Shown here: positions 1 through 64,000 of the stretch, in pieces
Layout of the letters: every line of letters starts with the position of its first letter
How positions within the stretch are numbered: position 1 is the first letter of the stretch
Assembly (NCBI GenBank): GCA_002687935.1
Contig: NZBN01000006.1
Coordinates: forward strand, 15,790-79,789
Length of the DNA stretch: 64,000 bases
Direction: 5' to 3'
DNA from: Methanobacteriota archaeon
GTDB taxonomy: Archaea > Undinarchaeota > Undinarchaeia > Undinarchaeales > Undinarchaeaceae
Position numbers and translations under genes: made by a program
Notes under the pieces: generated by a model
What the model was told of the DNA's origin: nothing
Database searches by the model: none
Seen by the model: the letters and a program-made list of their open reading frames with translations, nothing else

Positions 1-1
1 A

Positions 2-493
2 TTTGCGAAAGAACGAGGCTATGCTGTGTTCTATGTAGGTGGTCTTACGAAAGAAGAGCTTGAGAAGCGCGGACTTGAAGTGAATGAAGCTAATGAGAGG
101 GAAATCAGAGAAAGTTTGAGAAAGGAATTTGGAATGGATGTTTATGCGCAGAAGATTTCTGAGAAAATTGCTGCTTCAGGAGAGGAAATTATTCTTCTGG
201 ATGGTGTGAGGAGTTTTGAAGAGTATGAATTTCTGAGGAATAAGTACGGAAAGGACTTTTTGATGTTGAGTATTGTCGTTTCTCCTGATTTGCGCTATGA
301 AAGACTTATGAGCCGAGAGTTTAGAGGTCTTAGTAAAGAAGATTGTGTGAGTAGAGATATGTCTGAAATACGGAATATTAACCACGGCAATACTATAGCA
401 ATGGGAGATTATTATATTGTTAATGATGGAAGCGACAAAAGCGAGTTCAGGGAAAAGGTAAATGAAGTTCTTAATAAGCTTGTGGAATCATAA
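2..493 (+). CDS. P-loop nucleotide kinase-like protein (archaeal COG0237 / dephospho-CoA kinase-like), 5'-truncated by the window edge
   Basis: Frame is open from position 2 (FAKERGYAVFYVGG...). Motifs LDGVRSFEEY, RYERLMSR and DYYIVNDG are typical of this family; Walker A would lie before the window. Confidence 0.7.
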   Translation, partial: FAKERGYAVFYVGGLTKEELEKRGLEVNEANEREIRESLRKEFGMDVYAQKISEKIAASGEEIILLDGVRSFEEYEFLRNKYGKDFLMLSIVVSPDLRYERLMSREFRGLSKEDCVSRDMSEIRNINHGNTIAMGDYYIVNDGSDKSEFREKVNEVLNKLVES

Positions 494-537
494 GAAACTT
501 TATAAGGAAATAGATTATAGAAATAGAAGGGAGTAAG

Positions 538-795
538 ATGGCAAGAATTCCATTTAAAGAAGTTCAAACAAAAACAGTTGTTTCAGAGGGCGGAAGGATG
601 TTCGGAAAAGTCCTCGATATAACTGTGGATGTAGGAACTGGAGAATTGATTAACCTTATTGTTGAGCCGACAAAGTATATACTGGCTCATTTTGAGGATT
701 TGGTACGAGATAAGAAGGGAAGAATACTTTTGCCCTTCAGCGCAGTAACTGCTGTTGGAGACTTCGTTCTGGTAAACGAGAACGACGTTCTTTAA
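538..795 (+). CDS. PRC-barrel domain protein (CdpB-like)
   Basis: 85 aa with PRC-barrel pattern K-x-V-x-S-x-x-G-x-x-x-G-x-V-x-D-I...G...L-I-V-E-P...LLPFSAVTAVGDFVLV; SD-like GGGAG upstream. Confidence 0.85.
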   Translation: MARIPFKEVQTKTVVSEGGRMFGKVLDITVDVGTGELINLIVEPTKYILAHFEDLVRDKKGRILLPFSAVTAVGDFVLVNENDVL

Positions 796-814
796 ACTTA
801 AATTTTAAAAATAA

Positions 815-1147
815 TTAAGCTTCTAGTGCTTTTTCTAAGGTTTCTGAGAGACTTTCCTTTTGTTGGAGTCCCGTCATCTCTTCAATTATTTCGCCATTTT
901 TGAATATTTTTATGTTTGGGATTCCCATGACGCCGTAAGATTCGGCAAGTTCTTTGTTTTGGTCTACATCTATCTTGTAAAATTCAACCTTGCCTGTATA
1001 TTCTTCTGAAAGCTCATCGAGAATTGGTGTAAGAACCTTACAGGGACCGCACCAGGTAGCGAAAAAATCCACAAGTATTGGTGTAGAGCCCGGTGCATTG
1101 AGAATCTTCTCTGTAAAATCTGCTTCAGAGTCTATAATTTTCATCAT
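815..1147 (-). CDS. trxA: Thioredoxin
   Basis: DFFATWCGPCK active site and cis-Pro motif GIPN; 110 aa. Confidence 0.95.
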   Translation of the reverse strand: MMKIIDSEADFTEKILNAPGSTPILVDFFATWCGPCKVLTPILDELSEEYTGKVEFYKIDVDQNKELAESYGVMGIPNIKIFKNGEIIEEMTGLQQKESLSETLEKALEA

Positions 1148-1196
1148 AATATTTCTTCTTGGGAGGATTTTTTTATATGCTTTTCCTAAAAATAAT

Positions 1197-2141
1197 TTAT
1201 TCAGTTCTTACTGTGTCTGCCAAGTCCTGAGAACTGTTGTTGAGATTAATTAGATTTCGGAGAATTGGGCGTGTGTCTTTGTTTTTAGGAAATTTATCGT
1301 AGTTGATGTTTTTTCCCAAGGATATTGCCTCGAGAGCGAATGCTTCTTTCTTCTTGAAAAAACCCTTTGATGCCATTTGATTTAGTTCATATGAATTTTC
1401 TAAATAAGTTAGAACTTGTTTTTGTGTTGAAATATTTTTGAGTTTGAGGAGAGACTCGGCGATTGATTGCAGACTGTCCCCCATCTGTTCTATAAATCTT
1501 GCGACAAGCCTGTAATCTATACAGTCGGAAGCGGAAATCTTTTCATTGTCCCTCAGGCTTGGTGTTTCGAGGATTTTTCTTATTTGTCTGATAATTAGAA
1601 AGTACAGACGATTTACTTCTTCATCTCGTTGAACTACATCTTTTAAGAGAGTTTTTGAACCTGTTTTTAGTGATTTTAATATATCTTTGTGCATAACAGA
1701 AACTATTGTGTACATCCTTCTGACTGATTTTGAAATGGAAATTTCAGCAGGATTTAGAAGATTATGAATAGTCATCGTATTAGAGGCCTCCTCCATTATT
1801 TCGTAGCCGAGGAGAAAGCGGAGGGTGTTCTTTAATTCCATTTTCCTTTTTTCAAGTGATTCTTTTCCTTCGAAAATTTTTACTATGTCGTAGCCAAGTA
1901 GGTACTTTTCTAGGAGATGGCGCTCAATGTTTGGACCTGATATAATTTCCACTTCACTTGGATTTTTTGAATTGTGTTCGCCTATTCTTACAGTGAGTGA
2001 ACCGTCTCCGTTTTCAGATAAAGAAAGTTTTTCGCCCTTGCTAAGTTTTTGGCGATTTATCCATTTCTTAGGGAGAGAAATGACATAGGTTGAGCCCCCT
2101 GTTTTCTGTATTTTTCTTAATTCAGCCATCAGACAATACAT
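1197..2141 (-). CDS. AbrB/SpoVT-PhoU domain phosphate uptake regulator
   Basis: N-terminal RKIQKTGGSTYVISLPKKW (AbrB-like) followed by PhoU repeats (RDEEVNRLYFLIIRQ, RFIEQMGD). Confidence 0.9.
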   Translation of the reverse strand: MYCLMAELRKIQKTGGSTYVISLPKKWINRQKLSKGEKLSLSENGDGSLTVRIGEHNSKNPSEVEIISGPNIERHLLEKYLLGYDIVKIFEGKESLEKRKMELKNTLRFLLGYEIMEEASNTMTIHNLLNPAEISISKSVRRMYTIVSVMHKDILKSLKTGSKTLLKDVVQRDEEVNRLYFLIIRQIRKILETPSLRDNEKISASDCIDYRLVARFIEQMGDSLQSIAESLLKLKNISTQKQVLTYLENSYELNQMASKGFFKKKEAFALEAISLGKNINYDKFPKNKDTRPILRNLINLNNSSQDLADTVRTE

Positions 2142-2216
2142 CTAGGAAAACTATATTCACTATATATTTTAAGGCTTTGCACAGGTATATAAACGCAAGA
2201 TTCCAGTTCACTAAAG

Positions 2217-3371
2217 ATGGTAGTTGAAATTATAGAGCTTGGAAAGAAGAGAATAAGCTTGGTGGGAACTGCGCACGTTTCCAAGAAAAGCATTACTGAA
2301 GTCAAGAAAATTATAACGAAGGAAAAACCTGATTCTGTTGCAATTGAGCTCTGTCCCGGTCGTTATGAGCAATTGATAAGTGGTGACAGCTGGCAGGATA
2401 TGAAGATTAATGAAGTTTTGAAGAGTGGGAAGTCCCACATCTTGCTACTTCATCTGGTGCTGATGAATTTTCAGAGGAGAATTGGGAATGAATTGGGAGT
2501 AAAGCCAGGGGAAGAGATGTTAGAAGCTGCGAAATCCGCTGAAAAGGAGGGAAGTACTATTGTTTTTGCAGACAGACCAGTAGAACTTACCATGCAGAGA
2601 ATGTTATCTATGATGGGTCTTAAGGAAAAGGCGAAAATTATGATGCATTTTTTTTCAGGTATGTTTGAAGCACAGATTGATGAAGAATTGATAGAGAAGA
2701 TGAAGGAAAAGGATGTTCTTACAGAAGCAATTGAGACTTTGAGCGGCATTGCACCATCGGCGAAGAGGGTTCTTATTGATGAACGGGATTCTTATATGGC
2801 CGCGAGAATTCTTGAAGCAGATGGAGAGAATATTGTTGCTGTTGTTGGAGCAGGGCATGTTGAAGGAATTAAAAAACTTCTTGAGAATGGAGTTCTTGTA
2901 AAAGTTTCAACACGAGCAAAGGTGCAAAAGAAGAAAATTAGTGGACTTAGGATTGCGATGTATGCCATACCTGCTTTGTTTTTAGGAATTATTGGATATG
3001 GTTTGTATAGTGGAGGCGCTGAGTTAACTCTTACTCTATTGTTGTGGTGGTTCTTGATAAATGGTACACTTTCCGCGCTTGGAACGGCTCTTGCGCTTGG
3101 GCATCCTATTACGATAGTGTCTGCTTTTCTGGTAGCTCCCTTTACTTCATTAAATCCTATGATTGCGGCAGGATGGGTTACAGGCTATATTGAAGCCGTA
3201 GTAAGAGTTCCGAGAGTTCGTGATTTAGAAGGGCTTGGAAAACTTGATAATTGGAGGGCCTTTTGGAAAAATAGAGTAACCAGAATACTCCTTGTTGTTG
3301 TGCTTGCGAATGTTGGGAGCTCCATAGGAACTTTTGTTGCACTTCCTTATCTTTTAACCCTGCTTGGTTAA
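2217..3371 (+). CDS. TraB/GumN (pheromone-shutdown-like) family protein
   Basis: LVGTAHVS, VAIELC, LIDERDSYMA and VAVVGAGHVEG motifs; C-terminal TM region with PFTSLNPMIAAGW. Confidence 0.92.
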   Translation: MVVEIIELGKKRISLVGTAHVSKKSITEVKKIITKEKPDSVAIELCPGRYEQLISGDSWQDMKINEVLKSGKSHILLLHLVLMNFQRRIGNELGVKPGEEMLEAAKSAEKEGSTIVFADRPVELTMQRMLSMMGLKEKAKIMMHFFSGMFEAQIDEELIEKMKEKDVLTEAIETLSGIAPSAKRVLIDERDSYMAARILEADGENIVAVVGAGHVEGIKKLLENGVLVKVSTRAKVQKKKISGLRIAMYAIPALFLGIIGYGLYSGGAELTLTLLLWWFLINGTLSALGTALALGHPITIVSAFLVAPFTSLNPMIAAGWVTGYIEAVVRVPRVRDLEGLGKLDNWRAFWKNRVTRILLVVVLANVGSSIGTFVALPYLLTLLG

Positions 3372-3406
3372 AATAAGAGTTTAACTTTGAATTTTCTCGA
3401 AAACTT

Positions 3407-4600
3407 ATGCTAGAGACATTATTATTTGCAGGGCTTGGTTGTATTTTAGGAACTTTCACAGGCCTTGTTCCAGGAATTCATACGAATACACTTGCGATCA
3501 TTATTGTAGGACTGGCGCCGAATTTAACGAAGTTTAACTCAATATCGATTGCAGCTCTTTTAATGTCGATGGGAGTAGTCCACACGTTTCTTGATTTTAT
3601 TCCGAGTATATTGTTGGGAGTTCCTGAAGGAGAAAGTGCTCTGTCTGTTCTTCCTGGACATTCACTTTTGATTGAAGGGAGAGGGATTGAGGCAATTAGA
3701 TTGACTGCGTTTGGAAGTTTTTCTGCTCTTTTGATAACTCTTATTTTATTTCTCCCTGCTCTGAAGATTATGGAGGCAGTCTATCCTTTGGTTCAAGGGA
3801 ATATTTTATGGATTTTGATGGCAGTTGTTATTCTAAGTGTTTTGTCAGAAAAACGAATTGTTCTAGCAACTATAATTTTTCTGGTTTCTGGTTTTTTTGG
3901 ATATTTTACTTTAGAAGCTTCAGGAAGTCTAATTTTTCCTGCCCTTTCTGGGATGTTTGGAATCAGTACTATGTTGATTAGTTTGAAAAGTCAAGCATTT
4001 CCACCTGAGCAGGAGTTTTGGAAAGGGAGGATAAAGAAAGAAGATGTGTTTAGCTCTTTTCTTGGAGCATTTGCTGGAATTTTAGTTAGTATATTGCCAG
4101 GTATTGGAGCGGCGCAAGCTACGTATATTGTTCAGAATGTTAGAAATACAGAAAGAGAGGACTTTTTGATTTCTGTTTCCGGAGTAAATACTGCAAATAT
4201 TATTTTTACACTTGCAGTTATGCATACTGTTGGGAAGATGAGGTCTGGTTTAGTTATTGCAATAAAAGATATTTTTCCAGGAATTGGACTTGGGGATATT
4301 TTTGTACTTCTTGGTGTTATTCTATTTTCAGGGATTATTGCATACTTTCTGCAGGTGAAAATAGGTGAATTTGTTGCAAGGCGCTTGGGAAAAATTAGTG
4401 GGGAATCCTATAGAAAATTGACTCTTACGGTGATATTGTTTGTTGTAATTTTGGTTTTGATGATGACAGGATTCCGTGGGTTTGTTGTTTTAATAATTGG
4501 AACAGTAATCGGGTTTTTTCCGCCAAAACTTGGAGTCAGGCGAGCTCAGTGTATGGGCTTCTTTCTGATACCGGTTTTGTTGTTTTATAGTAAGCTATAA
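3407..4600 (+). CDS. Archaeal TctA-family (tripartite tricarboxylate transporter-like) membrane protein
   Basis: GLVPGIHTN, FLDFIPSILLGVP and VLPGHSLLIEGRG motifs; ~10 hydrophobic helices. Confidence 0.85.
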   Translation: MLETLLFAGLGCILGTFTGLVPGIHTNTLAIIIVGLAPNLTKFNSISIAALLMSMGVVHTFLDFIPSILLGVPEGESALSVLPGHSLLIEGRGIEAIRLTAFGSFSALLITLILFLPALKIMEAVYPLVQGNILWILMAVVILSVLSEKRIVLATIIFLVSGFFGYFTLEASGSLIFPALSGMFGISTMLISLKSQAFPPEQEFWKGRIKKEDVFSSFLGAFAGILVSILPGIGAAQATYIVQNVRNTEREDFLISVSGVNTANIIFTLAVMHTVGKMRSGLVIAIKDIFPGIGLGDIFVLLGVILFSGIIAYFLQVKIGEFVARRLGKISGESYRKLTLTVILFVVILVLMMTGFRGFVVLIIGTVIGFFPPKLGVRRAQCMGFFLIPVLLFYSKL

Positions 4601-4636
4601 ATATGTAGTTAGGAGATAAATGGTGAGTTGTGGGAA

Positions 4637-4954
4637 ATGGGTAAAGAAGATATAATTAAGAGAATTAATCGAATTGAACAAGAAGGGTTTGATAAAATTT
4701 CGTCTGCAGAAGCGAGAAAGGATATGAAACTTACTGAGGCAGGAAAATATGCGTCCGGGCTTCTTGAAAAATTTAATGAGAATTCCGTCACTTATGTACA
4801 GGAACGTATAGATACGGAGAGAAAAAATCAGATGAAGCGGGCAAGGAAGTCTGTTTCTGTGGCGGAGAAAAAAGCTGCCAAGCTTGAGGAATCGGCAAAG
4901 AAGAAGATGACGAAGGCGGTAGACTACATTTTTAAAGAATTTACGAGGGTTTAG
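4637..4954 (+). CDS. atpH: A1AO ATP synthase subunit H (G)
   Basis: Charged helical protein first in the operon; ATG at 4637 follows GGTGAG. The ORF track starts at a TTG at 4628. Confidence 0.75.
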   Translation: MGKEDIIKRINRIEQEGFDKISSAEARKDMKLTEAGKYASGLLEKFNENSVTYVQERIDTERKNQMKRARKSVSVAEKKAAKLEESAKKKMTKAVDYIFKEFTRV

Positions 4955-4957
4955 CTT

Positions 4958-6808
4958 ATGATAAAGACCCCAGAAAAGATGTGCAAAGTCTCAATTGCTG
5001 GTTCTAAGCGAGTTTTAGAGGATACAATAAGAATATTGCACGAGAAGGAAGCAGTTCATCTTCTTGATTACGCCAAAACAAAGAGTGAAAAGGAGGGGGG
5101 AGTTTTTTCTATAGGAAATTCTTTAGAGAGGGCAGAGAATCTTTCGAGTGCTCTTGTAAAAGCACGATCTCTTATGCGTATATTGGGAGTTGAAAGAGTA
5201 TCTTCAGCTCCTTCTTTGAAAGAGAGTGATAAAATAGTTGAAAAACGGATTGAGTGGCTACATTCCGTTGTATCTGGCCTGTTAGAGGAAATGGAGAAAA
5301 TTCAGGAAGAACTTGTGGAAATTGAAATTGCTAGAGAGACTCTTAAGTTTGTTGAGATAATTGGAACTGAGGTTGAAATTTTAAAGGAATCAAACGAGCT
5401 TGCCCTTTATATGGGATTTGTAAATAGTGATCCTGAAGCAGCTCTAAGTGATTTGACGAAGCGGTTTGAGTTTTTTTCCGGAAAGATGCGAGGAGAGGTT
5501 GCGTTTGCTCTCTTTATTGAAAGGGAGAAAGGACCTGAGGCGTTGGCTGAGTTAAAAAAACTAGGATACAGGGAAATTGAATTTCCAGATAATCTTGAAA
5601 AATATGGAACAAGGAAGAAATTGGAAAGGACTGCAAAAAGTAATGAATTGGAATTGCAGGATTTAAATAAGAAAATTACACGCTTTACTAGAGTGGAAGG
5701 TAAATTTCTGCAGAAGGCTGAGTATAGTTTGAAGAGAGCTAGTGAGAAGGCAGAGGCTCCTTTGCAATTTGCTATAAGTAATAATTCCTTCGTCATTGAA
5801 GGGTGGATACCTCGAAAAAGATATTCTTCTTTGGAGAAGACTTTGGTGACAGAGTTTAAGGATAAGATTCATATAGAATGTGAAGAAGCATCTGAAGAAG
5901 ATGGTTTGACACCTCCGACGGAACTTATAAATCCAAAAATTGTGGATTCTTTTGAAGTTTTTATAGATTTATATTCCAAACCTACTTACAAGGAAATTGA
6001 CCCGACCAATTTTATTTTCCTTACATTTCCATTATTCTTTGGTTTTATTTTAGGAGATGTGGGCTATGGATTCATAACACTTGCTCTCTTTGGATTTTTG
6101 AAAACGAAGATGAGGAGTGAAACTGGACGAGGATTAATGAATGCTTTGATACTGGCTTCTTTGGCAACAATTGTATTTGGTTTTGTATTTGGAGAATTTT
6201 TTGGTGTTGAACCCTATCACCCGCTGATACCGAGAGCCCATAATATTAACATGATGCTTGGGATTTCACTTGTAGTGGGAATTGTTCATATAAATTTAGG
6301 ATATTTACTTGGATTGATTAATGAATATAGAAAGGGGGGTATTGGTTATATGGTGCAACATACTGGTAGCTGGGTGTTTTTTGAGTTGGCAGCAATTCTT
6401 GTAATTTTGCAATATTTGGATATGTTGACATTTGCGTATTCAAATTATATTGTATATGGTGTTCTTGTGGCCTCAATTGCACTTCTTTACAAAGGACATG
6501 GGATAATTGGTATTATAGAATTGCCAGCAATATTGAGTAATATACTTTCATATGCGAGACTTTTCGCAGTCGGGCTTGCATCAGTTGCTCTTGCAATGGT
6601 CATTAATGACTTTACTGGTGTTTTCTTCTCTGCCGGTGGTTTTGGGTATGTGGCAGGGACAATAACTCTAGTTTTAGGACATACGATAAATATATTACTT
6701 GGAATTCTTGGTGGATTCCTTCAGTCATTGAGGCTTCATTATGTTGAGTTCTTCACGAAATTCTATAAAGGAGGAGGGGAGGCTTATCTGCCTTTCGGAA
6801 AAGAATAA
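4958..6808 (+). CDS. atpI: A1AO ATP synthase subunit I (a)
   Basis: PTYKEIDPT, FFGFILGDVGYG, ILSYARLFAVGLAS (essential Arg) and LRLHYVEFFTKFY. Confidence 0.97.
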   Translation: MIKTPEKMCKVSIAGSKRVLEDTIRILHEKEAVHLLDYAKTKSEKEGGVFSIGNSLERAENLSSALVKARSLMRILGVERVSSAPSLKESDKIVEKRIEWLHSVVSGLLEEMEKIQEELVEIEIARETLKFVEIIGTEVEILKESNELALYMGFVNSDPEAALSDLTKRFEFFSGKMRGEVAFALFIEREKGPEALAELKKLGYREIEFPDNLEKYGTRKKLERTAKSNELELQDLNKKITRFTRVEGKFLQKAEYSLKRASEKAEAPLQFAISNNSFVIEGWIPRKRYSSLEKTLVTEFKDKIHIECEEASEEDGLTPPTELINPKIVDSFEVFIDLYSKPTYKEIDPTNFIFLTFPLFFGFILGDVGYGFITLALFGFLKTKMRSETGRGLMNALILASLATIVFGFVFGEFFGVEPYHPLIPRAHNINMMLGISLVVGIVHINLGYLLGLINEYRKGGIGYMVQHTGSWVFFELAAILVILQYLDMLTFAYSNYIVYGVLVASIALLYKGHGIIGIIELPAILSNILSYARLFAVGLASVALAMVINDFTGVFFSAGGFGYVAGTITLVLGHTINILLGILGGFLQSLRLHYVEFFTKFYKGGGEAYLPFGKE

Positions 6809-6853
6809 ATAGAATGGAGAGAGACTCACAAGGTACGAAAAAGGAGGTATAGA

Positions 6854-7087
6854 ATGGCAGACGTTGGAACAGGACTTATTGCAATTGGTGCTGGCTTGTC
6901 ACTTGGATTGTCAGCTATTGGAGCAGGAATAGCAGAAAAATCCATTGGAGCAGCAGCAGTTGGTGCAATGGTAGAAGATGAAAAACATTTCGGAAAAGCT
7001 CTTCTGTTTACGGTTATTCCGGAAACTTTGGTTATTTTCGGGCTTGTTATTGCAATAATGGCATTGCAGCTCGCACAGCACGCATAA
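6854..7087 (+). CDS. atpK: A1AO ATP synthase subunit K (c), single-hairpin proteolipid
   Basis: 77 aa, two TM helices, IPETLVIFG with the ion-binding Glu; SD GGAGGT upstream. Confidence 0.97.
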   Translation: MADVGTGLIAIGAGLSLGLSAIGAGIAEKSIGAAAVGAMVEDEKHFGKALLFTVIPETLVIFGLVIAIMALQLAQHA

Positions 7088-7088
7088 G

Positions 7089-7652
7089 ATGGGACTTGAA
7101 GAAGTAGAGAAAGACATTCTCCAGAGGATTGAGTCTAAGTCTAAAGCTATAGATAGCTTGGGAGAAAGGGAAGCAGACTCTATAATAGCTGAGGCTCGGG
7201 ATGAGATAAAAAATCTGACAAAAAAGAGGAACTCAGAGCTTGAGAAGACTATTGAAGGTCTTGAAAAGAAGGAAACTGCTTTTTCGAATTTGCAGGCGAG
7301 GAAAATTAATCTTGATGTGAGGAAAAGGATAATGGAGTCAGCCTATTCTAAAGCTTTTGTAAAGGTAGAAAAGATCGCTATAGGGAAAAAACAGACTTTT
7401 CTGAAGGCTCTCCTTAAGAAAGGAAGGGGAGAGATTGATGCATTTGGTGTTTATACTAATGCAGAAGATAAGGCTCTTTTGAAGAAACTTGCACCGAATT
7501 TAAAGCATCTTGGAAATATTGAAACGAGTGGAGGATTTATTCTTGTTAATAAAGAAGGAAGTGTTCAAGTAGACTATACTTTTGAGACTATTTTTGAAGA
7601 AACGCAGAGAAGCTCTTTGAAGGGGGTGTCAGATATATTGTTTGGAAAATGA
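7089..7652 (+). CDS. atpE: A1AO ATP synthase subunit E
   Basis: MGLEEV start, long N-terminal helix, GGFILVNKEGSVQVDYTFE C-terminal motif; operon position. Confidence 0.93.
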   Translation: MGLEEVEKDILQRIESKSKAIDSLGEREADSIIAEARDEIKNLTKKRNSELEKTIEGLEKKETAFSNLQARKINLDVRKRIMESAYSKAFVKVEKIAIGKKQTFLKALLKKGRGEIDAFGVYTNAEDKALLKKLAPNLKHLGNIETSGGFILVNKEGSVQVDYTFETIFEETQRSSLKGVSDILFGK

Positions 7653-8683
7653 AGGTGAATAAGAAGTTTGCGGCGGGGCAGGGAGAAATAACTGGAGAGT
7701 ATTATTATGCAGGAACGAGAGCAAGGGCAGGTATTGCAAAGAGGATCAAGGATCTTGATTATGAACGTTTTATTAAAATGGGTGTAAGTGAGATTGTAAA
7801 ATTTTTGGAAGAGCGCGATTATAGAGAAGAAGTAGATACTCTTGGAATGAAATATAGTAAAGTTGAATTGGTTGAGAGGGCGCTTTACCAGAATTTTGCG
7901 CAGGTTATTGACAGCATTTTGAAATATGTTCCAGCGCAGTCACCACTTATCACTTATGTTGAAAAATATGATATAGATAATATAAAGGCTATATTACGGG
8001 GGAAGAGTTCAGGAAGAGGGAATGATGAATTAGAACGGGTTCTTATTCCTGCAGGAAATTTGACAAAGGAATTTTATTCTAATTTAATTGAGAATACTTC
8101 GTCAGTAGCTGAGGTAATTCAGGCCTTGAAAATGACTCAGTATTATAGAATTTTGGCTGGACTTGATATAAAAGATATTGAAAGTCTGGAGGATGCTTTA
8201 GACAGAGCTTATTATGAAAAATTATTGGAAGCAGGGGAGGCAGATTTTGAATTTATGGTCTTTGTAAAGGAAGAAATTGACATCAGAAATGCTGTAACTA
8301 TTCTCAGACTCAGTAGGTCAAAAACAAAGACTGAGAAGAAATATTTTATTAGTGGAGGAAATATTACAATGAAAAATCTTGCAAGTCTTTCTGAAAAAGA
8401 TTTGCCAGGTATGATTGATTTTTTCAAGAAGCAGAAATTTTGGAAATATGTAGACGGTGGAATTAAAGATGTTGGGAAAATGGAAAATGGTTTGAGAAAA
8501 TATCTTATGATGAGGAGTACAGTTTTATTGAGAGATTACAATCCGAATTTAAAAACTGTATTGGGATATATTGTTGTTAAAGAAAGAGAAATGGCAAATG
8601 TCAGAATGATTGTCAGGAGTAAGCAGATGAAAAGCGTAGAAGGGGAGGTGCTTGTGAGGTCAGGGATGTACCTTGGAAATTAA
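7649..8683 (+). CDS. atpC: A1AO ATP synthase subunit C
   Basis: YYYAGTRARA, YDIDNIKAILRGK, EIDIRNAVTILR and KEREMANVRMI; operon position. Confidence 0.93.
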   Translation: MKVNKKFAAGQGEITGEYYYAGTRARAGIAKRIKDLDYERFIKMGVSEIVKFLEERDYREEVDTLGMKYSKVELVERALYQNFAQVIDSILKYVPAQSPLITYVEKYDIDNIKAILRGKSSGRGNDELERVLIPAGNLTKEFYSNLIENTSSVAEVIQALKMTQYYRILAGLDIKDIESLEDALDRAYYEKLLEAGEADFEFMVFVKEEIDIRNAVTILRLSRSKTKTEKKYFISGGNITMKNLASLSEKDLPGMIDFFKKQKFWKYVDGGIKDVGKMENGLRKYLMMRSTVLLRDYNPNLKTVLGYIVVKEREMANVRMIVRSKQMKSVEGEVLVRSGMYLGN

Positions 8684-9002
8684 TATGGAAATTTCAATAA
8701 TTGGTGAAAGAGATTTCACACTTGGCTTCCAGTTGTGTGGAATAAAGAATATACAAAATGTTGAGAAGTCAGATTATACTAACTTCAATAAGGTATTCAC
8801 TGAGACTATAGAGAATTCTGATATAGGGATTGTTGTTGTTAATGAAACTTATTATCAAAAAATGCCTATTCAGATAAAGAAAAAGCTTGAAAAACTGGTT
8901 TCTCCAGTTGTAGTTGCTCTTTCTGATGAAGATAGTGCAGGTGGCTCTGATTTGAGGACTTTGATAAAAAGGAGTTTGGGAGTAGACCTATGGAAAGAAT
9001 GA
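8673..9002 (+). CDS. atpF: A1AO ATP synthase subunit F
   Basis: ISIIGERDFTLGFQLCGI and IKRSLGVDLW; true start may be the second Met at 8685. Confidence 0.93.
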   Translation: MEINMEISIIGERDFTLGFQLCGIKNIQNVEKSDYTNFNKVFTETIENSDIGIVVVNETYYQKMPIQIKKKLEKLVSPVVVALSDEDSAGGSDLRTLIKRSLGVDLWKE

Positions 9003-12178: not shown

Positions 12179-12179
12179 G

Positions 12180-55897: not shown

Positions 55898-55940
55898 AGC
55901 AACGTTGCATATAAATCAGAAGGTATTAATAACTTAGCCT

Positions 55941-56912
55941 ATGGCTTCAGAAATATACAGCAGACAAGAGTTGATTATCGGAAAAGAAGCTCAGAAAAAA
56001 CTTGAAAAATCGAAAGTCTGCATAGTTGGCGTCGGCGGAACTGGCAGTGCAGTCGCAGAACTCCTCGGTAGGGCAGGTGTAAGTCTTACTCTTATAGACA
56101 GAGATATAGTCGAAAAGAGCAATCTTGGCCGTCAAATACTTTATTCAGAAAAAGACATAGGAAATCTCAAAGCCCTCTCTGCAAGAAAAAATATACTTTC
56201 TGCAAACCCCGTGGTAAAAATAGAAGCAGTAAATGATGAGTTAAACACAGAAAATGCAGAAAAGCTTTTAGGTTCTGACCTAATTATCGACTGCACAGAC
56301 AATATGGCTGCCCGATTTCTGATAAATGAAGTTTCACTCAAAAAGAAAATTCCATGGATATATACTGGAGCAATAAAAAATGAGGGATTAGTTGCAATTT
56401 TCTCAGGAATGGGAAATCCTTGCTTTCGTTGTATGGTTCCACGAGTTCCAAAAGCAGGGAGCCTCGAAATCTGCTCAACATCAGGAGTTCTCGGACCTCT
56501 TCCATCTGTCGTTGGAAGTATTACTGCAAGAAAGACAATAGAAATTTTGCTTGAAGGTCCAGAAAACGGAAGCCTTCTAAAAATAGGAGAGAACTTCGAA
56601 AACCTACAAATCAAAGGGCGTGAATGGTGCGATACATGCCGTAAAGAATTTCCAATACTGGAGGGCAGAGAAAATCTTAACAACTCGATACAGTTCTGCG
56701 GAGCAATTGTTCTAAAAAGTGATATTCCCTTTTCAGAAGCAAAGAAAAGGATAAAGAAAAATTCCAAAATCATCTCATCAAGTAATACTGTAATTGTCAC
56801 AGAATACAAAAAATCAAGAATAATAATTCTAAAAAGCGGAAAAATCATCTTCAGAAATCTCAAAACAAAGAAGGAAGCAAATATTATATATTCAAAACTA
56901 ATTGGTAATTGA
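55941..56912 (+). CDS. ThiF/MoeB/UbaA E1-like activating enzyme
   Basis: YSRQ, GVGGTGS, DRDIVEKSNLGRQ, DCTDN, PCFRC...CSTSGVLG...CDTC; C-terminal extension. Confidence 0.92.
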   Translation: MASEIYSRQELIIGKEAQKKLEKSKVCIVGVGGTGSAVAELLGRAGVSLTLIDRDIVEKSNLGRQILYSEKDIGNLKALSARKNILSANPVVKIEAVNDELNTENAEKLLGSDLIIDCTDNMAARFLINEVSLKKKIPWIYTGAIKNEGLVAIFSGMGNPCFRCMVPRVPKAGSLEICSTSGVLGPLPSVVGSITARKTIEILLEGPENGSLLKIGENFENLQIKGREWCDTCRKEFPILEGRENLNNSIQFCGAIVLKSDIPFSEAKKRIKKNSKIISSSNTVIVTEYKKSRIIILKSGKIIFRNLKTKKEANIIYSKLIGN

Positions 56913-57129
56913 TAAAATGTCAGTATTACTAGACCGTTGGAGAAGAAAGCACATAGTTCTATTTTCTCTTATTATTGGTCTTTCAACTCTCTCCTTTGCC
57001 TGGGGAACCTGGAGGTTAATGGACATTTACTTATTTCCAAGTAGCCCTGAGATCGCTGCCTGGTCCGCAATTTTCCTTGGCTTTTTCATACTCTCAATAA
57101 CTGGTTTTGTTAGCAAGGAATTAATATGA
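56902..57129 (+). CDS. Small two-TM membrane protein
   Basis: 75 aa, overlaps both neighbours as in a coupled operon. Confidence 0.6.
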   Translation: MVIDKMSVLLDRWRRKHIVLFSLIIGLSTLSFAWGTWRLMDIYLFPSSPEIAAWSAIFLGFFILSITGFVSKELI

Positions 57130-57869
57130 AAATAAAGAAAAATGATTTGGTTCTCCTCATTGGAGATCGTGACTATCTTGTTCAGGCAGGCTCAGGGAAA
57201 TTCGGAACCCGTAGAGGTGAAATTGATCTAAAAGAACTTAGCAAAAAGAAATACGGCGATACTGTAAAAACCCACATGGGTCAGGCCTATGTTGCAGTAA
57301 AACCCAGAACTGGCGATATTCTAAAGAAAATAAAAAGAGCGCCCCAAATAATCGGTTTAAAGGACGCCGGCTACATCACAGGCCGAGTCTGCCTTGGAAA
57401 GGACGATGTAGTCCTGGAAGCAGGCTCAGGCTCTGCAGCAATGACCATTTTCATGTCAGGCATTGCAAAAAAAGTTATTTCCTACGAAATTCGAAAAGAC
57501 TTTTATAAAATCGCAAAGGGAAATCTTGAAAGATTCGGAATTAAAAACGTAACAATAAAAAACAAAAGTGCGAACAAAGGCTTCACTGAAAAAAACGCAG
57601 ACTTGGTGCTTCTAGACATGGGTTCTCCTGAACTCGTAATTCCACATATTCCAAAATCCTTAAATCCCGGAGGATACCTAATCGTTTATTCCCCAGTAAT
57701 AGAGCAGATTCAGCGAGTCTATGATTCAATAAACCAGAGCAAGTCCTTCACAATCCCTGAAACTGAAGAAGTAATGATGAGGCGCTGGGACATTGGCGGA
57801 AACAAGACAAGACCAAAGACCCAGATGCTTGGTCACACAGCTTTCCTGACATTTTCCAGACGAATTTAG
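57126..57869 (+). CDS. trmI: tRNA (adenine-57/58-N1)-methyltransferase
   Basis: RAPQIIGLKD, LEAGSGSAAM, YEIRKDF, LLDMGSP and RPKTQMLGHTAFL. Confidence 0.92.
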   Translation: MKIKKNDLVLLIGDRDYLVQAGSGKFGTRRGEIDLKELSKKKYGDTVKTHMGQAYVAVKPRTGDILKKIKRAPQIIGLKDAGYITGRVCLGKDDVVLEAGSGSAAMTIFMSGIAKKVISYEIRKDFYKIAKGNLERFGIKNVTIKNKSANKGFTEKNADLVLLDMGSPELVIPHIPKSLNPGGYLIVYSPVIEQIQRVYDSINQSKSFTIPETEEVMMRRWDIGGNKTRPKTQMLGHTAFLTFSRRI

Positions 57870-57900
57870 AAATCCTTTTAAGCTTTCAATCAAAGAATAA

Positions 57901-58836
57901 TTGGGAGAAATGGCACTAAAAGGAAAAGATATCATAACTCTAAAAGATATCACAAAGGAAGATATAAACTTCATTCTCGAAAACGCAGAAATTTTTGAAG
58001 AGAAATTAAAGAAGGAACCTCTCAAAGTTCTTGAGGGAAAAATACTCGCAACAATTTTTCTTGAGCCTTCAACAAGAACAAGACTTTCCTTCGAAAGTGC
58101 AATGCACAAACTTGGCGGGCGTGTTCTGACAGTTTCAAAAGATGAAATGACCTCTCTCGCAAAAGGAGAAAATCTTTCTGATATGGCAAGAGTAATAGAA
58201 GGCTACTGCGATGTCATAACAATTCGAACTCCTATTGAAGGTGCTCCAAAAATGATTGCTGACAGAGTCAGCGTCCCTGTAATAAATGGAGGCGATGGAG
58301 CCCATGCCCACCCAACTCAGCCCTTCCTTGACTTATACACTATGAAGAAGGAATTCGGAAAGCTCGAAGGTCTAAAAGTCGCAATTATTGGTGATTTGAA
58401 ATACGGAAGAACTGTCCACTCTCTTGTATACGCCCTTGCTATGGTGGGAGTTGAAATGGTCTTCGTATCTCCAGAAGAGCTCAGAATGCCCTCTTCCATA
58501 ACAAAAGTTCTCAAAAATGAATTCGGTATTGAAGTAGAAGAAAAAAGTGAACTTGAAGAAGTTATCCCTGAAGTTGATGTTCTCTATATGACTAGAATCC
58601 AGAGAGAAAGATTTCCCCACGAAAGTGAGTATGAAAAAGTTAGAAATATTTACAGACTAGACAGTAAAATTCTAAAGAATGCAAAAGAGGGAATGAAAAT
58701 ACTACACCCTCTCCCAAGAATAGACGAAATTGCTCCGGAACTCGATGCAACAAAATATGCCTGTTATTTCAGCCAGGCGCACAATGGAGTTCCAGTCCGT
58801 ATGGCAATACTTGCAGGAGTTTTAGGAAAAATATGA
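57901..58836 (+). CDS. pyrB: Aspartate carbamoyltransferase catalytic subunit
   Basis: FLEPSTRTRLSF, HPTQ, GDLKYGRTVHSL, TRIQRER and HPLPR. Confidence 0.98.
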   Translation: MGEMALKGKDIITLKDITKEDINFILENAEIFEEKLKKEPLKVLEGKILATIFLEPSTRTRLSFESAMHKLGGRVLTVSKDEMTSLAKGENLSDMARVIEGYCDVITIRTPIEGAPKMIADRVSVPVINGGDGAHAHPTQPFLDLYTMKKEFGKLEGLKVAIIGDLKYGRTVHSLVYALAMVGVEMVFVSPEELRMPSSITKVLKNEFGIEVEEKSELEEVIPEVDVLYMTRIQRERFPHESEYEKVRNIYRLDSKILKNAKEGMKILHPLPRIDEIAPELDATKYACYFSQAHNGVPVRMAILAGVLGKI

Positions 58837-59297
58837 CTGAAAAAAACGAGCCAAAAGTTAGCAGAATAAAAAACGGAACAGTTCTGGACCATCTAAACGA
58901 AGGTTCTGCACAAAGAATACTTGAAATGATTGGCGTCAACAGTGATTATGGAAACACCGTAATCGTACTGATGGGCTCTATGAGTAAATCGATGGAGAGA
59001 AAAGATGTCATCAAAATCGAGGATAAATTTCTTGAACCTGAAGAAACCAGAATGCTTGCCCTCATTGCACCAAATGCAACAATTAGCATAATTAAAAATT
59101 ATAACATTGCAAGCAAAACAAAAGTTAGTCTTCCAAAAAAATTCATAGGAGTCGGCAAATGCCCGAATCCAAAATGTACTACAAATCAAAATGAGCCAAT
59201 TTCTCCTGTTTTCAATGTTGAAACAAAAACCCCACTTACACTTAGATGTGTTTTCTGCGAAAACGTAGTTAAAAGCTCCGATATATCATCTCATTAA
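58833..59297 (+). CDS. pyrI: Aspartate carbamoyltransferase regulatory subunit
   Basis: IKNGTVLDH, KDVIKIE and Zn site CPNPKC...LRCVFC. Confidence 0.97.
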   Translation: MTEKNEPKVSRIKNGTVLDHLNEGSAQRILEMIGVNSDYGNTVIVLMGSMSKSMERKDVIKIEDKFLEPEETRMLALIAPNATISIIKNYNIASKTKVSLPKKFIGVGKCPNPKCTTNQNEPISPVFNVETKTPLTLRCVFCENVVKSSDISSH

Positions 59298-59410
59298 CCT
59301 GCAAAACAATTCAATTCAAAATAGAAAAGGTCGTCATCAAGCAAAACATTGAAAACAGGGTGGAGTTCTTCTAAAATACTATCTTCTTCAAATTCCACCA
59401 CTTCTTTCAT
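59294..59410 (-). CDS. Possible small acidic protein (38 aa), not in the ORF track
   Basis: MKEVVEFEEDSILEELHPVFNVLLDDDLFYFELNCFAG*; its ATG overlaps the HMGR stop as ATGA. Confidence 0.35.
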   Translation of the reverse strand: MKEVVEFEEDSILEELHPVFNVLLDDDLFYFELNCFAG

Positions 59411-60600
59411 AATTTCTCATTGGGGTCTGAATTATTTAAACCTGACGAAGTGCCCATTTTCTCAGATTCAATTTTTCTTGCATGCAATTTCATATGCCCT
59501 TTCTGAATGCCTTCACTTGTCAGCGCTTTCAGCGCCGCGAAATTCTGACACAACCCGACTGCACCTGCAATCTCAGCCAACTCTGCCGCGGAAGAAATTC
59601 CAAGAACCTTTAAATTTGTCTTCGCAACTGGATGAATTTTTGTTGCTCCTCCTACAATTCCGACGGCCATTGGAACTTCAAGCTCACCGACTAAATCTCC
59701 CTCACTATTTTTACTAAAACTTGTAACAGGAATATAACTTTCTCCCTTTCCTGCATAAGAATGAACTCCTGCCTCAACAGCTCTCGTATCATTTCCTGTT
59801 GCGAGAACAAGAGCGGAAATTCCATTCATCACTCCTTTATTGTGAGTCGATGCTCTGTAAATATCAGTCTTTGCTATCTCTGAAACATCAACTATTGCAT
59901 CAACAATTTCCTCTCCTCCTAGCTCTTCTTTGTCAAAAACAGCCGAGCTCTTCACAAGTCTGTGAACAGCAAGGTTCGAAAGAATTCTCAACACAGCTTT
60001 CCCTCCTGACAACTCTTCGAGAAGAGGTGCAATTCTCTCCGCCATTGTATTAACCGCATTTGCTCCCATGGCATCTCTGCAGTCCACAAGCAGATGAACC
60101 ACCATAGTTTTCCCAAGCTTCCTAATCTCCAAACCCTTTGCACCTCCTCCAAGACTTACTAAAGTGCTGTCACAGGAATTACAAGTTTCAATAATGTTAT
60201 CTTTTTCAGAAAGTATTTTCTCCTCTGCTTCATCTTGATTACTAACTCCTGAAAGATGAATCTGCCCTATCATTACTGGAGTGGTAGCCTCGGATTTAAT
60301 TCCTCCCCTTACACGAGAAATTTTTGCCGCGTTACTAGCTGCAGCAATAACTGACGGTTCTTCTGTCGCCATTGGAATAATGTAATCTTTTCCATTTATC
60401 AGAAAATTTGCGGCAAAACCCAAGGGAATTGGGAATGAACCAACTACATTTTCAACCATCTTATCAGCCTGCTCTGTCGTAAGATAAGATTTTTCAAGAA
60501 ATCTCCGCTCTTCTTCAGAAATCCCTGAAAACTCTGCAATAATATCGAGCCTTTCTTTTGGGCTCAGTTTATAAAAACCCGGAATTCTTGAAGAAGTCAT
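59407..60600 (-). CDS. mvaA: HMG-CoA reductase, class II
   Basis: SSRIPGFYKL, ENVVG, TEEPSVIAAAS, DAMGANAVN, THNKGVMNG and EGIQKGHMKLHA. Confidence 0.95.
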   Translation of the reverse strand: MTSSRIPGFYKLSPKERLDIIAEFSGISEEERRFLEKSYLTTEQADKMVENVVGSFPIPLGFAANFLINGKDYIIPMATEEPSVIAAASNAAKISRVRGGIKSEATTPVMIGQIHLSGVSNQDEAEEKILSEKDNIIETCNSCDSTLVSLGGGAKGLEIRKLGKTMVVHLLVDCRDAMGANAVNTMAERIAPLLEELSGGKAVLRILSNLAVHRLVKSSAVFDKEELGGEEIVDAIVDVSEIAKTDIYRASTHNKGVMNGISALVLATGNDTRAVEAGVHSYAGKGESYIPVTSFSKNSEGDLVGELEVPMAVGIVGGATKIHPVAKTNLKVLGISSAAELAEIAGAVGLCQNFAALKALTSEGIQKGHMKLHARKIESEKMGTSSGLNNSDPNEKL

Positions 60601-60989
60601 TTTCGTGGTCTGAATTTATATCCGTAGCTTATTGCCCCGGCCTTTCCATCTTCAGATATTTTTCGGAAACAAGATTCAACTTCCGCCCCAATATTTACCT
60701 CTCCTTTATGGGCATCAACTATCTGGGCTGTAAGTCTGGGACCTTCCTCGAGCTCAATTATTGCAAGATAGTAGGGAGTTTCATGTTCAAAACCCTCTGC
60801 CGCCGCGTGTATTTTTGTATAGGTCAGTATCTTACCAAATCCACTAAGCTTACTGGCTTCAAAATCAGATTCACCGCAGTCCTTACACCTTTCTCTCCTT
60901 GGAACGTTGATTAAATTACAGCCAGTACATTTTCCACCTGTTAGATTATATCTCACAGGTATCTCTCTCCAGAAGCGTGAAACACTCAT
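60597..60989 (-). CDS. DUF35 Zn-ribbon/OB-fold scaffold protein
   Basis: [14 protein letters not shown]...[12 protein letters not shown] and YGYKFRP; directly after the thiolase. Confidence 0.95.
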
Positions 60990-62146
60990 CGTGAAAATAT
61001 ATGGACAGCAGCAGTTCCGCCCGAACCCCCTACATTATGTGTCAAAACATATTCTACATCATCTATCTGCCTTTCTCCTGCTTCTCCCCTAAGTTGAAGT
61101 GAAGCCTCTATCGCCTGTGCGATTCCGGTTGCTCCGACTGGATGACCTTTCGTTTTCAGTCCGCCTGATGTATTTACAGGCATTGAGCCCTTAAGTCCGG
61201 TCTCTCCCTGCTCAGTAAACTTGCCGCCGTCTCCTTTCTCACAGAATCCAAGGTCTTCAATAGCGCAGAGCTCGGCAATCGTAAAACAGTCGTGAACTTC
61301 AGCCGCTCCAATATCCTTTGAAGTAAGTCCAGCCTGCTTATACGCCTGTCTTCCTGCCTCAACTGTTGCATTAAGAGTCGTCAAAGATTTTCTAGAATGA
61401 AGTGAAAGTGTATCAGAAGCCTGCCCTGAACCCGCTATCCACACAGGATTTTCACAGAGCTCCTTTGCTTTCTCTGCACTTGCCAGAACAAGCGCAGCTG
61501 CCCCGTCGCTCACAGGTGAGCAGTCAAAAAGTCTCAAGGGATCAGCCACCATCGGTGATGAAAGAACAGAATCAATTGTTATCTCCTTCTGAAATTGAGC
61601 CTTAGGATTTTTAGAACCATTATAATGATTTTTCACAGAGACACTTGCAAGTTGTTCTTCAGTAGTTCCAAATTCGTGCATATGCCGTCTTGCAATCATT
61701 GCATAAAGTCCCGGAAAAGTTGCACCAAAACCAGCCTCCCACTCCTGGTCAGCCGCAGTTGCAAGAGCGCCTGTAGTCCTCGACGGAAGAACATCTGTCA
61801 TTTTCTCAGCCCCTGCGGCTATAACTACATCGTGCATTCCGGATTTTATAGACATATATGCAGTCCTCAATGCCAGCCCTCCTGAGGCGCAGGCTGCTTC
61901 GACTCTGGTCGCCGGTTGAGGTGTCAGATTAGAATGGTCCATAATCAATGAAGCAAGATGCTCCTGTCCTATAAATTGCCCTGCACTCATATTTCCCCCA
62001 AACAGTGCTCCAACTTCTTCAGACTTGATTCCGGCATCTTCAAGAGCTCCAGCTCCAGCTTCAACGAAAAGCTGTCTGAATGAGCGATCCCACAACTCCC
62101 CAAACTTCGTCATTCCTATTCCAATTATTGCTACTTCCTGACTCAT
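60986..62146 (-). CDS. Acetoacetyl-CoA thiolase (archaeal type)
   Basis: [38 protein letters not shown] and HNVGG. Confidence 0.96.
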
Positions 62147-63186
62147 TCTGTCTTTATTTTCCCCCTATATTTTGCATAAGTTGCATAGTCAATGTAGTGC
62201 TTGTGCTCTATCTGAGATTCAACAGATGGTGCATTCTCCCTTACTTCTTTCAGACGTCCTGTTGCCTCCAAAATAAAGCTATCAGAACCTGCTCCAGAGC
62301 CATAGGACGTAAGAAGAATTTTATCTCCTTCTTCAGCTTGATCAAGAACTGCGGCAAGTCCAAGAACACTCGCTCCTGAATAAGTATTTCCTATCCTTTC
62401 AACCAAAAGCGAGGGAGAAACCTGCTCCTCTGTAAATCCAAGTTTCTTCGCTGCAATCCTCGGAAACTTCCCATTAGGTTGGTGAGGAACAAAATACTTG
62501 AAATCCTTAACTTCGTATTCTGAATCTTTGAGAATCTGCTCAGTACAGCTTACAATATGCTTGAAGTATGCCGGTTCTCCTGTGAATCTTCCTCCATGTT
62601 TCGGATAGGACTGACCCGGTCTCCTCCAGAAATCAGGAGTATCCGTCGTAAAAGAAGTGGTGCTTTCAATCTTCGCCAGCAACTTATCCTTTCCAATAAT
62701 AAATGCAGCTCCTCCGGCTGCTGCAGTATATTCAAGAGCATCGCTCGGAGCACCTTGCGAAGTATCAGCTCCTACTGCAAGCCCGTATTCTGCCATTCCT
62801 GAGCCAACAAGTCCCATACAAATCTGCATTCCAGCAGTTCCCGCCTTACATGCAAATTCCAAATCAGCCGCTGTCATAATTGGAGTTGCTTCAATAGCCT
62901 CAGCAACAATTGTAGAGCTTGGCTTTACTGAATAAGGATGCGACTCAGAGCCAACATAAACAGCTCCAATTTTGTCAGGCTCAATATCAGCAAGAGCCAG
63001 TGCATTTCTCGATGCTTCAGTCGCTATCGTTACAGCATCTTCATCAGGTCCCGGAACAGACTTCTCACTAATCATTAAACCTTTCTTAATTGACTCAGGA
63101 TTTGCTCCCCAAACACGGGCTATTTCCTCGGCCTTAATTCTATAATAAGGTATGTAGCTTCCATACCCCACAATTCCCACATCCAT
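62143..63186 (-). CDS. mvaS: HMG-CoA synthase
   Basis: [15 protein letters not shown] (catalytic Cys), [14 protein letters not shown] and SYGSGAGSD. Confidence 0.97.
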
Positions 63187-63259
63187 CGCCTTGAAGGTTA
63201 GTTTATCTTTATTTAAATCTTTGGAGAAACTTTAAGAACACTTAAAGCTAATATGAGTT

Positions 63260-63379
63260 ATGGCATTTCCCTTTGAAAAAAAACTCTGTTGCGTTTGCGA
63301 GAAAAAAACTGCAATGGGCAAGGAATATGATGGTAAGTGGTATTGCTCTATGAAGTGCTATCGCAAAAACAAGGATTGA
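63260..63379 (+). CDS. Small TRASH/YHS-like metal-binding protein (39 aa), not in the ORF track
   Basis: MAFPFEKKLCCVCEKKTAMGKEYDGKWYCSMKCYRKNKD*; CxxC...YCSxxC; upstream TTTAAG/TTAAAG boxes. Confidence 0.65.
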   Translation: MAFPFEKKLCCVCEKKTAMGKEYDGKWYCSMKCYRKNKD

Positions 63380-63382
63380 AGT

Positions 63383-64000
63383 TTAAAGATTAAACAACTT
63401 CTTCTTCAGTTTAACTACATCTGAATTTTCCTCAAAATAAGTTCTTAGCGGTTTCAGATAATCTGACATTGCCCCGGAAACGGCCTTCTTCAAGTCTGCC
63501 GGATGCAAATCTCCCTTCTTGAAAGAATCTTCCAGTTCTTCATAAGTTTTAAAACTCAAATCCCCACCATACTTCTCAGGACGCTCGGCCTTTAGCTTAC
63601 CAAGCCTCGGGAAAATAATATATCTGGCAATCTGAAGAACAGGATTCCCTTCTACATCTTCAGCCGTACAATAAGCCTTGTTCATTTTCTTTTCAATTAC
63701 TTCAGGACTGTCATCTACCATTATCATCGTCTCAGGAAGGGAACTACTCATTTTGTTTCCTGGACCCTTCAGCGAAACTATCAACGGTGTATGGACACAG
63801 GTTGGTGCCTTATACCCGAGTTTCGGTAGTTCCTCTCTCGCAACCATATGGATTTTTCTCTGCTCTATCCCCCCATAGGCAATATCAAGCTTCATATGAG
63901 CTATATCAAGTGACTGCATTAGAGGATAAAACATCTGAGAAACATGGGCGTGCTCAACATCTCTCGCCACCTGCTGCATACTCCTCATCGCCCGATTTAC
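63383..64000 (-). CDS. tyrS: Tyrosyl-tRNA synthetase, 5'-truncated by the window edge
   Basis: YPLMQSLD, GGIEQRKIHMVARE, KMSSS and LHPADLK; frame open to 64000. Confidence 0.96.
   Translation of the reverse strand, partial: VNRAMRSMQQVARDVEHAHVSQMFYPLMQSLDIAHMKLDIAYGGIEQRKIHMVAREELPKLGYKAPTCVHTPLIVSLKGPGNKMSSSLPETMIMVDDSPEVIEKKMNKAYCTAEDVEGNPVLQIARYIIFPRLGKLKAERPEKYGGDLSFKTYEELEDSFKKGDLHPADLKKAVSGAMSDYLKPLRTYFEENSDVVKLKKKLFNL

Follow-up and report, generated by a model that had tools for sequence, protein, structure and literature searches.

Introduction

Replication origins of haloarchaea, assumed or proven, display an inverted GC skew in which C is in excess on the leading strand (PMC1868953, PMC2841640), and the examples include Haloferax volcanii, Halobacterium NRC-1, Natronomonas and Haloquadratum (Norais et al. 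2007 PMC1868953; Hartman et al. 2010 PMC2841640; Paravel et al. 2026 PMC12999951). In H. volcanii the origins were mapped by autonomously replicating sequence (ARS) assays (PMC1868953, PMC2841640), and ori3 is located at a maximum of the cumulative GC skew computed from third codon positions and from non-coding DNA (PMC12999951). Inverted polarity at archaeal origins is thus already known. Bacterial polarity was reported for Pyrococcus, which bears PolD (PMC1868953), and a bacterial-type pattern for the DPANN archaeon Forterrea, whose origin adjoins cdc6 (PMC5905446). A survey of reference genomes described archaea as largely devoid of strand-specific mutational skews, with GC skew mostly reflecting gene orientation (PMC12999951). 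Here we analyzed a 64-kb stretch of DNA (hereafter the window) from a member of the Undinarchaeota, a DPANN lineage, which carries the initiator gene orc1/cdc6 and, immediately upstream of it, a putative replication origin with origin recognition boxes (ORBs), and in which the strand composition switches at about 19.25 kb.

In bacteria, the skew between oriC and dif consists of an excess of G over C and of T over A on the leading strand and is attributed to cytosine deamination on the lagging-strand template. Mammalian N-domains show a sharp skew jump at an efficient origin and a gradual reversal between origins. In Pyrococcus abyssi and the Thermococcales, the gene order at the origin is oriC-cdc6-dp1-dp2.

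The locus studied here is similar to the haloarchaeal cases in that a cdc6- and ORB-linked putative origin lies at the maximum of the cumulative GC skew, whether total, third-position or non-coding, with C in excess on what would be the leading strand. It differs from them in belonging to a DPANN lineage of non-halophile type with a genome of ~0.7 Mb and a single Cdc6, and its skew at third codon positions (GC3 skew) is, at ±0.4-0.5, far larger than in H. volcanii, where the signal is described as weak. In addition, the H. volcanii origins were mapped, whereas the present one is predicted from sequence. We found no substitution-spectrum analysis for haloarchaea in the literature; the class identified here is A>G/T>C. 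With the oriC of Pyrococcus abyssi and the Thermococcales the locus shares the cdc6-DP1-DP2 order, TTCCAGTGGAA-type ORBs around an AT-rich stretch and a single origin, but its skew polarity is opposite, since that of Pyrococcus is reported to be bacterial. As in bacteria, a step in both GC and AT skew stands at a replication landmark independently of gene orientation, and third positions, non-coding DNA and amino-acid usage are affected in the manner of strongly skewed bacteria. Unlike in bacteria, the sign is opposite if the site is an origin, with the cumulative maximum at the cdc6-ORB site, C>T and G>A are symmetric (1.06), and there is neither a sharp terminus step nor a gene-strand bias. 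One sharp jump with a gradual, low-amplitude return elsewhere is also the shape of mammalian N-domains, from which the locus differs in scale, in replication programme and in the jump itself, whose sign is opposite. In the literature we did not find a description of inverted polarity in the Undinarchaeota lineage, of its amplitude or of the asymmetric substitution class.

Results

Strand composition switches at one point upstream of orc1/cdc6

The window corresponds to G000:C6:15790-79789, where G000 is an assembly of 666,542 bp in 11 contigs with ~40% G+C and 87% completeness. The original prediction held that strand and codon skew flips at ~19.25 kb of the window, and the flip was borne out by per-gene GC3 skew on the plus strand over the whole contig C6, which was positive in 33 of the 34 genes to the left of this point and negative in 47 of the 50 genes to the right (Mann-Whitney p = 1.4e-14). 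In a regression of GC3 skew on the same contig, weighted by length, side contributed -0.369 and gene orientation +0.056 (R2 0.86). The effect of side was -0.42 at 4-fold degenerate sites, the corresponding A/T measure (AT3 skew) switched in the complementary sense by +0.123 per side, and the GC skew of intergenic DNA switched too, from +0.15 on the left to -0.14 on the right. These results demonstrate that the skew step is independent of orientation and is present at synonymous and non-coding sites. Third-position skew therefore inflects near 19.2 kb as had been proposed, and gene orientation as the cause of the flip was ruled out by the regression. The skew also extends to codon positions 1 and 2 and to amino-acid usage, with Val, Gly, Ala and Glu enriched and Pro, His and Asn depleted in proteins encoded on the G/T-rich strand.

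In both arms the sign of the GC3 skew was the same for genes of either orientation, with pooled plus-strand values of +0.48 (plus genes) and +0.31 (minus genes) in the left arm and of -0.32 (plus genes) and -0.39 (minus genes) in the right arm. The plus strand had a raw GC skew of between +0.2 and +0.4 at 1-13 kb and of between +0.06 and +0.09 over the minus-strand genes at 13-19 kb. From ~19 kb it was negative to the end of the window, as had been claimed for C/A-richness, except for small positive stretches at 38-41 and 56-59 kb. The cumulative GC skew reached its maximum for the window at 18-20 kb, the keto walk (cumulative G+T minus A+C) at 19267, within a 58-bp AT-rich element, and the G-C walk at 19406. 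The tracts around this point are as extreme as had been described by eye, with 78% G+T at 19005-19245 and 76% A+C at 19270-19430. When 8 genes were compared with the adjoining 8 at all 547 gene boundaries of the assembly, the step at the putative origin was -0.94, or 6.7 SD, and the next biggest step in either direction was 0.32.

The same switch occurs at cdc6 throughout the order

Ten loci from the same order, representing 4 families, were examined, and one of these genomes, G011, was retrieved almost whole (712 kb). In all ten, GC3 skew was positive to the left and negative to the right of the region upstream of cdc6, whichever strand cdc6 occupies, so the polarity check on related genomes that had been suggested returned the same flip at the same place. 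The step was 0.3-0.5 per side and was kept to ~40-50 kb in G005 and G011, with G005 holding 0.3-0.46 to 50 kb without decay; it was weaker in G008 and G009. The G-C or keto walk peaked 336-813 bp upstream of cdc6 in each of five contigs of relatives, which measure 39-110 kb. ORB-like boxes together with an AT-rich stretch were present upstream of cdc6 in 8 of the 10 order members examined, and most relatives carry canonical ORBs there, consisting of TTCCAGTGGAA followed by ATAAAGGGG.

Outside the order, 55 cdc6 loci gave a mixed picture, with bacterial-type flips at L085 and L119 and inverted flips at L060 and L086. Five loci of DPANN type from public metagenome-assembled genomes (MAGs), L124, L058, L125, L097 and L071, showed a very strong, orientation-independent skew that did not flip at cdc6; examples are a Pacearchaeota MAG with GC3 values of +0.59/+0.60 and L097 with AT3 values of +0.61/+0.72. 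In these lineages, cdc6 does not mark a skew switch.

The bias is mutational and asymmetric in A:T>G:C

Orthologues were compared between G000 and G011 as 374 reciprocal-best pairs. Their coding-strand GC3 skews were uncorrelated (r = 0.04), and the skew of each gene followed that of its neighbours (r = 0.72). The difference in skew between orthologues tracked the difference in local context with a slope of 0.97 (r = 0.77, p = 2e-75), and the 35 pairs located in opposite strong contexts mostly had skews of opposite sign. The ATPase operon, for example, has a GC3 skew of +0.5 by the putative origin in G000 and of ~+0.1 in G011, where it lies elsewhere. Because orthologues take the skew of their current position, the bias is mutational. 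Gene-specific codon selection, considered as another cause, was ruled out by the same comparison. Whole syntenic blocks were also observed in opposite strand contexts, such as G000:C6 54-79 kb and G011:C8 7-47 kb, in which most genes have opposite-signed skews, which indicates that inversions or translocations within arms are common in the order and that the skew is reset afterwards.

The substitution classes were estimated with two genomes of the same genus, G001 and G002, which are collinear with the window and have a 4-fold distance of 0.15 from each other and of 0.40 each from G000. The 5,158 4-fold sites shared by the three genomes were oriented on the G/T-rich strand and fitted by maximum likelihood in IQ-TREE. 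The non-reversible UNREST model, applied here to three taxa with stationarity assumed and codon selection possible, was superior to the strand-symmetric STRSYM model (2dlnL = 316.6). On the G/T-rich strand the ratio of A>G to T>C was 2.55 (bootstrap 95% CI 1.94-3.05), with 2.66 in the left arm and 2.48 in the right arm. Genes coded by the G/T-rich strand gave a ratio of 2.22, and those of the opposite strand 3.64. C>T and G>A were symmetric, with a ratio of 1.06 (bootstrap CI 0.76-1.45). The asymmetric class is therefore A:T>G:C, that is, A>G on the G/T-rich strand or T>C on the C/A-rich strand, and cytosine deamination on an exposed template is not the driver of the skew. Three-taxon parsimony polarisation, which yielded more G>A than C>T on the G/T-rich strand, was set aside because it is biased with an outgroup at a distance of 0.40 and skewed composition.

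Two explanations had been offered for the polarity in the original prediction, a dormant origin at converging forks, which is weighed in the Discussion, and a different mutational asymmetry linked to a PolD-based replisome. The different asymmetry fits best, given the superiority of the non-reversible model, and the link to PolD is unsupported, since PolB is also encoded and both the PolD-bearing Pyrococcus and the DPANN archaeon Forterrea are reported to have a polarity of bacterial type. Loss of a repair gene was also considered and rejected; genes for UDG and EndoV are present along with PolB, NucS was not found in the assembly, and no simple loss fits.

One sharp step and a gradual return in the genome

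G000 and G011 each have one sharp step, which lies at cdc6 (-0.67 in G011), and no opposite step above 0.33. Strong skew is confined in both genomes to the cdc6 contig and a few others. The skew distribution on the weak contigs is unimodal and hence not that of scrambled ±0.4 blocks. Where the skew turns from negative to positive, as across G000:C8, it does so gradually, and one sharp step with a gradual return is as expected from a fixed start and unfixed termination. Synteny between G000 and G011 is too broken to order the G000 contigs, so that a decay of skew with distance from the putative origin is presumptive.

Genes shared with G011 are most frequent on the cdc6 contig (76% compared with 50% elsewhere, p = 7e-6) and least frequent on C8 (29%, p = 1.6e-4), across which the sign gradually returns. 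The richness of the cdc6 contig in core genes resembles the pattern in Sulfolobus, for which PMC4640148 cites core genes near origins, and weakly suggests that the site is an origin. A rough hand tally of gene strands on the other skewed contigs revealed no bias.

Contig C2 (173 kb), whose GC3 skew is ~0, shows a separate change in AT3 skew from -0.1/-0.2 at 0-62 kb to +0.11/+0.19 at 75-173 kb in both orientations. The sequence is T-rich to the left and A-rich to the right of the change at ~62-75 kb, the same polarity as the AT component at the cdc6 site; there is no Cdc6 there, and the one weak ORB-like match of the assembly is nearby (C2:75404). On the same contig, 28 co-oriented plus-strand genes at 24.6-41.3 kb have a GC3 skew of +0.18 with flanks of ~0, which produces the second-biggest steps of the scan (±0.32). 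This cluster is probably highly expressed, with the skew as a consequence of expression or of codon usage. On contigs C1, C5 and C9, none of the 38 open reading frames (ORFs) has a reciprocal-best orthologue in G011, and the skew of C5 is still strong (-0.36). The three contigs may represent variable or mobile DNA, or their counterparts may be lacking in the G011 assembly.

Organization of the putative origin and its neighbourhood

The 515-bp intergenic region upstream of cdc6 contains one ORB in minus and two in plus orientation together with the AT-rich stretch (Table 1). Each ORB consists of a TTCCAGTGGAA-type dyad followed by a G-string. Instead of separating inverted ORBs, the AT-rich element follows the ORB pair on its right-hand side. 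With an adjacent cdc6, several ORBs, some of them inverted, an AT-rich element and conservation among relatives, 18916-19430 appears to match an archaeal origin of the ORB-DUE type (DUE, duplex unwinding element). Elsewhere in the 666-kb assembly, the combination of ORB and G-string has only the weak match on C2, and neither a second ORB cluster nor a second Cdc6, as would mark a second origin, was found in the assembly. At 19043-19177, between the inverted and the direct ORBs, TTTAGTGGTTTTGTAGTG-like T/G repeats recur at a spacing of 11 nt or 40-41 nt. As such a spacing follows the helical repeat, the array may serve to bind protein or to bend the DNA.

Table 1. Features of the window around the putative origin (window coordinates)
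Feature	Position	Strand	Basis or description
Left arm	1..18915		plus strand G/T-rich at synonymous sites, any gene orientation
PolD large subunit DP2	12772..16269	-	Pfam PolC_DP2_N, central and catalytic domains, E 1e-100 to 1e-120
PolD small subunit DP1	16256..17713	-	Pfam Metallophos, DNA_pol_E_B
orc1/cdc6 initiator gene	17722..18915	-	Pfam Cdc6_C, Cdc6_lid, AAA
ORB, minus orientation	18968..19003	-	TTCCACTGGAA, then ACAAA, then G-string
T/G-rich tract	19004..19184	+	composition; 78% keto, short T/G repeats
Two ORBs, plus orientation	19185..19240	+	TTCCAAAGGAA + G-string; TTCCAGTGGAA + G-string
Presumed unwinding element (DUE)	19245..19302		composition; 54/58 bases A/T (93%), contains switch point
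A/C-rich tract	19303..19430	+	composition; 77% amino, mirror of T/G tract
159-aa ORF, first right-arm gene	19431..19910	-	without Pfam family
Right arm	19431..64000		plus strand C/A-rich at synonymous sites, any gene orientation

Translation of cdc6 from the ATG at 18915 gives a protein of normal length (397 aa), to which relatives align from residue 1. The mechanically called ORF (17722-19191, minus strand) encodes 489 aa from a TTG start at 19191 and overruns the ORBs, and its 92 extra N-terminal residues are read-through of T/G-rich origin DNA. Gene callers may over-extend cdc6 here; one open-frame reading gives 515 aa. Cdc6_C had a single match in the assembly, and this is the only cdc6 found. 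The nearest named Cdc6 relatives retrieved are from DPANN and other archaea, with at most 56% identity. The genes cdc6, DP1 and DP2 follow one another on the minus strand. On the other side, the 159-aa ORF and a 139-aa ORF (21525-21944, plus strand), also without a Pfam family, flank a DEAD-box helicase gene by the putative origin. Most gene names in the original prediction agree with these assignments (A-type ATPase subunits, PolD DP2/DP1, Cdc6, DEAD helicase, Hef and SerS), the gene named mvaS fits a thiolase/HMG-CoA-synthase-like pair, and pyrB was not located.

Discussion

We consider it probable that the locus is an Orc1/Cdc6 origin that is active and whose skew has the inverted polarity already published for haloarchaea. 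The segment 18916-19430 would be the chromosomal Orc1/Cdc6-dependent origin of a small DPANN archaeon. The cdc6/ORB site presumably fires, forks would depart from it in both directions, and strand-asymmetric mutation would enrich G/T on the strand equal to the nascent lagging strand and C/A on the equivalent of the nascent leading strand. Replication-linked mutation would then shape synonymous sites, intergenic DNA and even amino-acid usage. The two templates may differ in copying fidelity or in damage, and this difference would be the source of the asymmetry, possibly through more T:dGTP mispairs in lagging-strand synthesis or through heavier adenine damage to the template of the leading strand. 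Where the skew fades, away from the origin, forks may have lost their fixed direction because termination is dispersed or because initiation does not depend on the origin. If the site fires, the earlier reasoning that genes pointing away from oriC are C/A-rich, opposite to the bacterial rule, was right.

Several observations weigh against an active origin of this kind. About half of each genome (G000, G011) has an absolute GC3 skew of at most 0.15, and this drop in amplitude to 0-0.15 means that a single-origin replicon of constant skew needs an extra assumption. A sharp opposite step could hide in the contig gaps of an assembly that is 87% complete in 11 contigs. Gene orientation gives no help, since only 44% of coding bases on contig C6 point away from the site and 56% point towards it. 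The replication-associated asymmetry in human cells is an excess of A>G on the leading strand, and this sign, if applicable here, would imply that forks converge at the site.

Convergence of forks is indeed what would be expected if the bacterial and eukaryotic rule of a G/T-rich leading strand holds and the cdc6/ORB site is dormant or rarely used, an explanation that we regard as unlikely. The observed polarity is that of a terminus under the bacterial rule, and the majority of coding bases points towards the site. In one version, the bound initiator or another feature stops forks and initiation takes place elsewhere or is dispersed; a fixed two-sided barrier with dispersed initiation would also produce one sharp step fading with distance. 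The origin is dispensable or unused in some archaea, such as Thermococcus and Haloferax, which counts in favour of convergence, as does the mention of origin-independent replication in archaea (PMC12999951). On the other hand, the 87%-complete assembly yielded no XerA (no Phage_integrase family match) and no dif-like site (nothing within 3 mismatches of the Thermococcales dif consensus), and two genomes revealed no second ORB cluster, second Cdc6 or sharp opposite step. We know of no fork trap in archaea. The switch falls on the AT-rich element itself, within tens of bp, and the region is rich in core genes, as origins are. Moreover, the bacterial rule rests on C>T asymmetry, and because this is absent here, its sign need not apply. 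The dormant origin at converging forks, the second explanation of the original prediction, is disfavoured by a single sharp step on the DUE and the absence of a comparable opposite step in two genomes.

A still less likely explanation accepts the site as an origin and supposes that the skew records an origin-proximal process, strongest within ~50-100 kb, such as repeated abortive initiation or an uncoupling of helicase and polymerase that exposes the leading-strand template. The polarity fits damage to the leading-strand template, and the skew peaks in amplitude on the cdc6 contigs, with little or none on about half of G000 and G011. However, the step in G005 shows no decay up to 50 kb, the contigs are unordered, which leaves their distance from the origin undefined, and the mechanism is speculative. 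We attach hardly any weight to an origin of the flip outside replication, by codon-usage selection, transcription asymmetry, a recent inversion or a chimeric assembly join. Only the general fact that gene orientation contributes to archaeal skew (PMC12999951) speaks for it; against it, the effect of orientation is small compared with that of side, intergenic DNA flips as well, orthologues adopt the skew of their current location, and the same flip is present in 10 independent assemblies.

Beyond an active origin with inverted polarity, we tentatively put forward a more specific picture, doubtful as it still is as a whole. A canonical Undinarchaeota origin would fire and imprint one of the strongest asymmetries among archaea (GC3 ±0.4-0.5), inverted in sign and produced by an A:T>G:C bias on one template instead of cytosine deamination, and only the 100-200 kb around oriC would be copied in a fixed direction. 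If this is true, lagging-strand synthesis or damage to the leading template dominates mutation in these cells, and the fading skew is a fossil map of fork direction, with the rest of the chromosome copied by forks of either direction.

With a skew that is large, orientation-independent, positional and measurably mutational, this lineage is a clear counter-example to the statement that archaea largely lack strand-specific mutational skews (PMC12999951). Haloarchaeal-style inverted polarity does not depend on halophily. For at least some members of the DPANN, sequence alone is enough to place an origin within tens of bases, and in GC-skew curation of MAGs the bacterial rule that the minimum is the origin would mislabel origin and terminus. 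The A>G/T>C class offers a handle on how leading- and lagging-strand synthesis differ in archaea, and the lineage would be well suited, as a natural system, to asking whether directional copying of archaeal chromosomes is limited to the vicinity of oriC.

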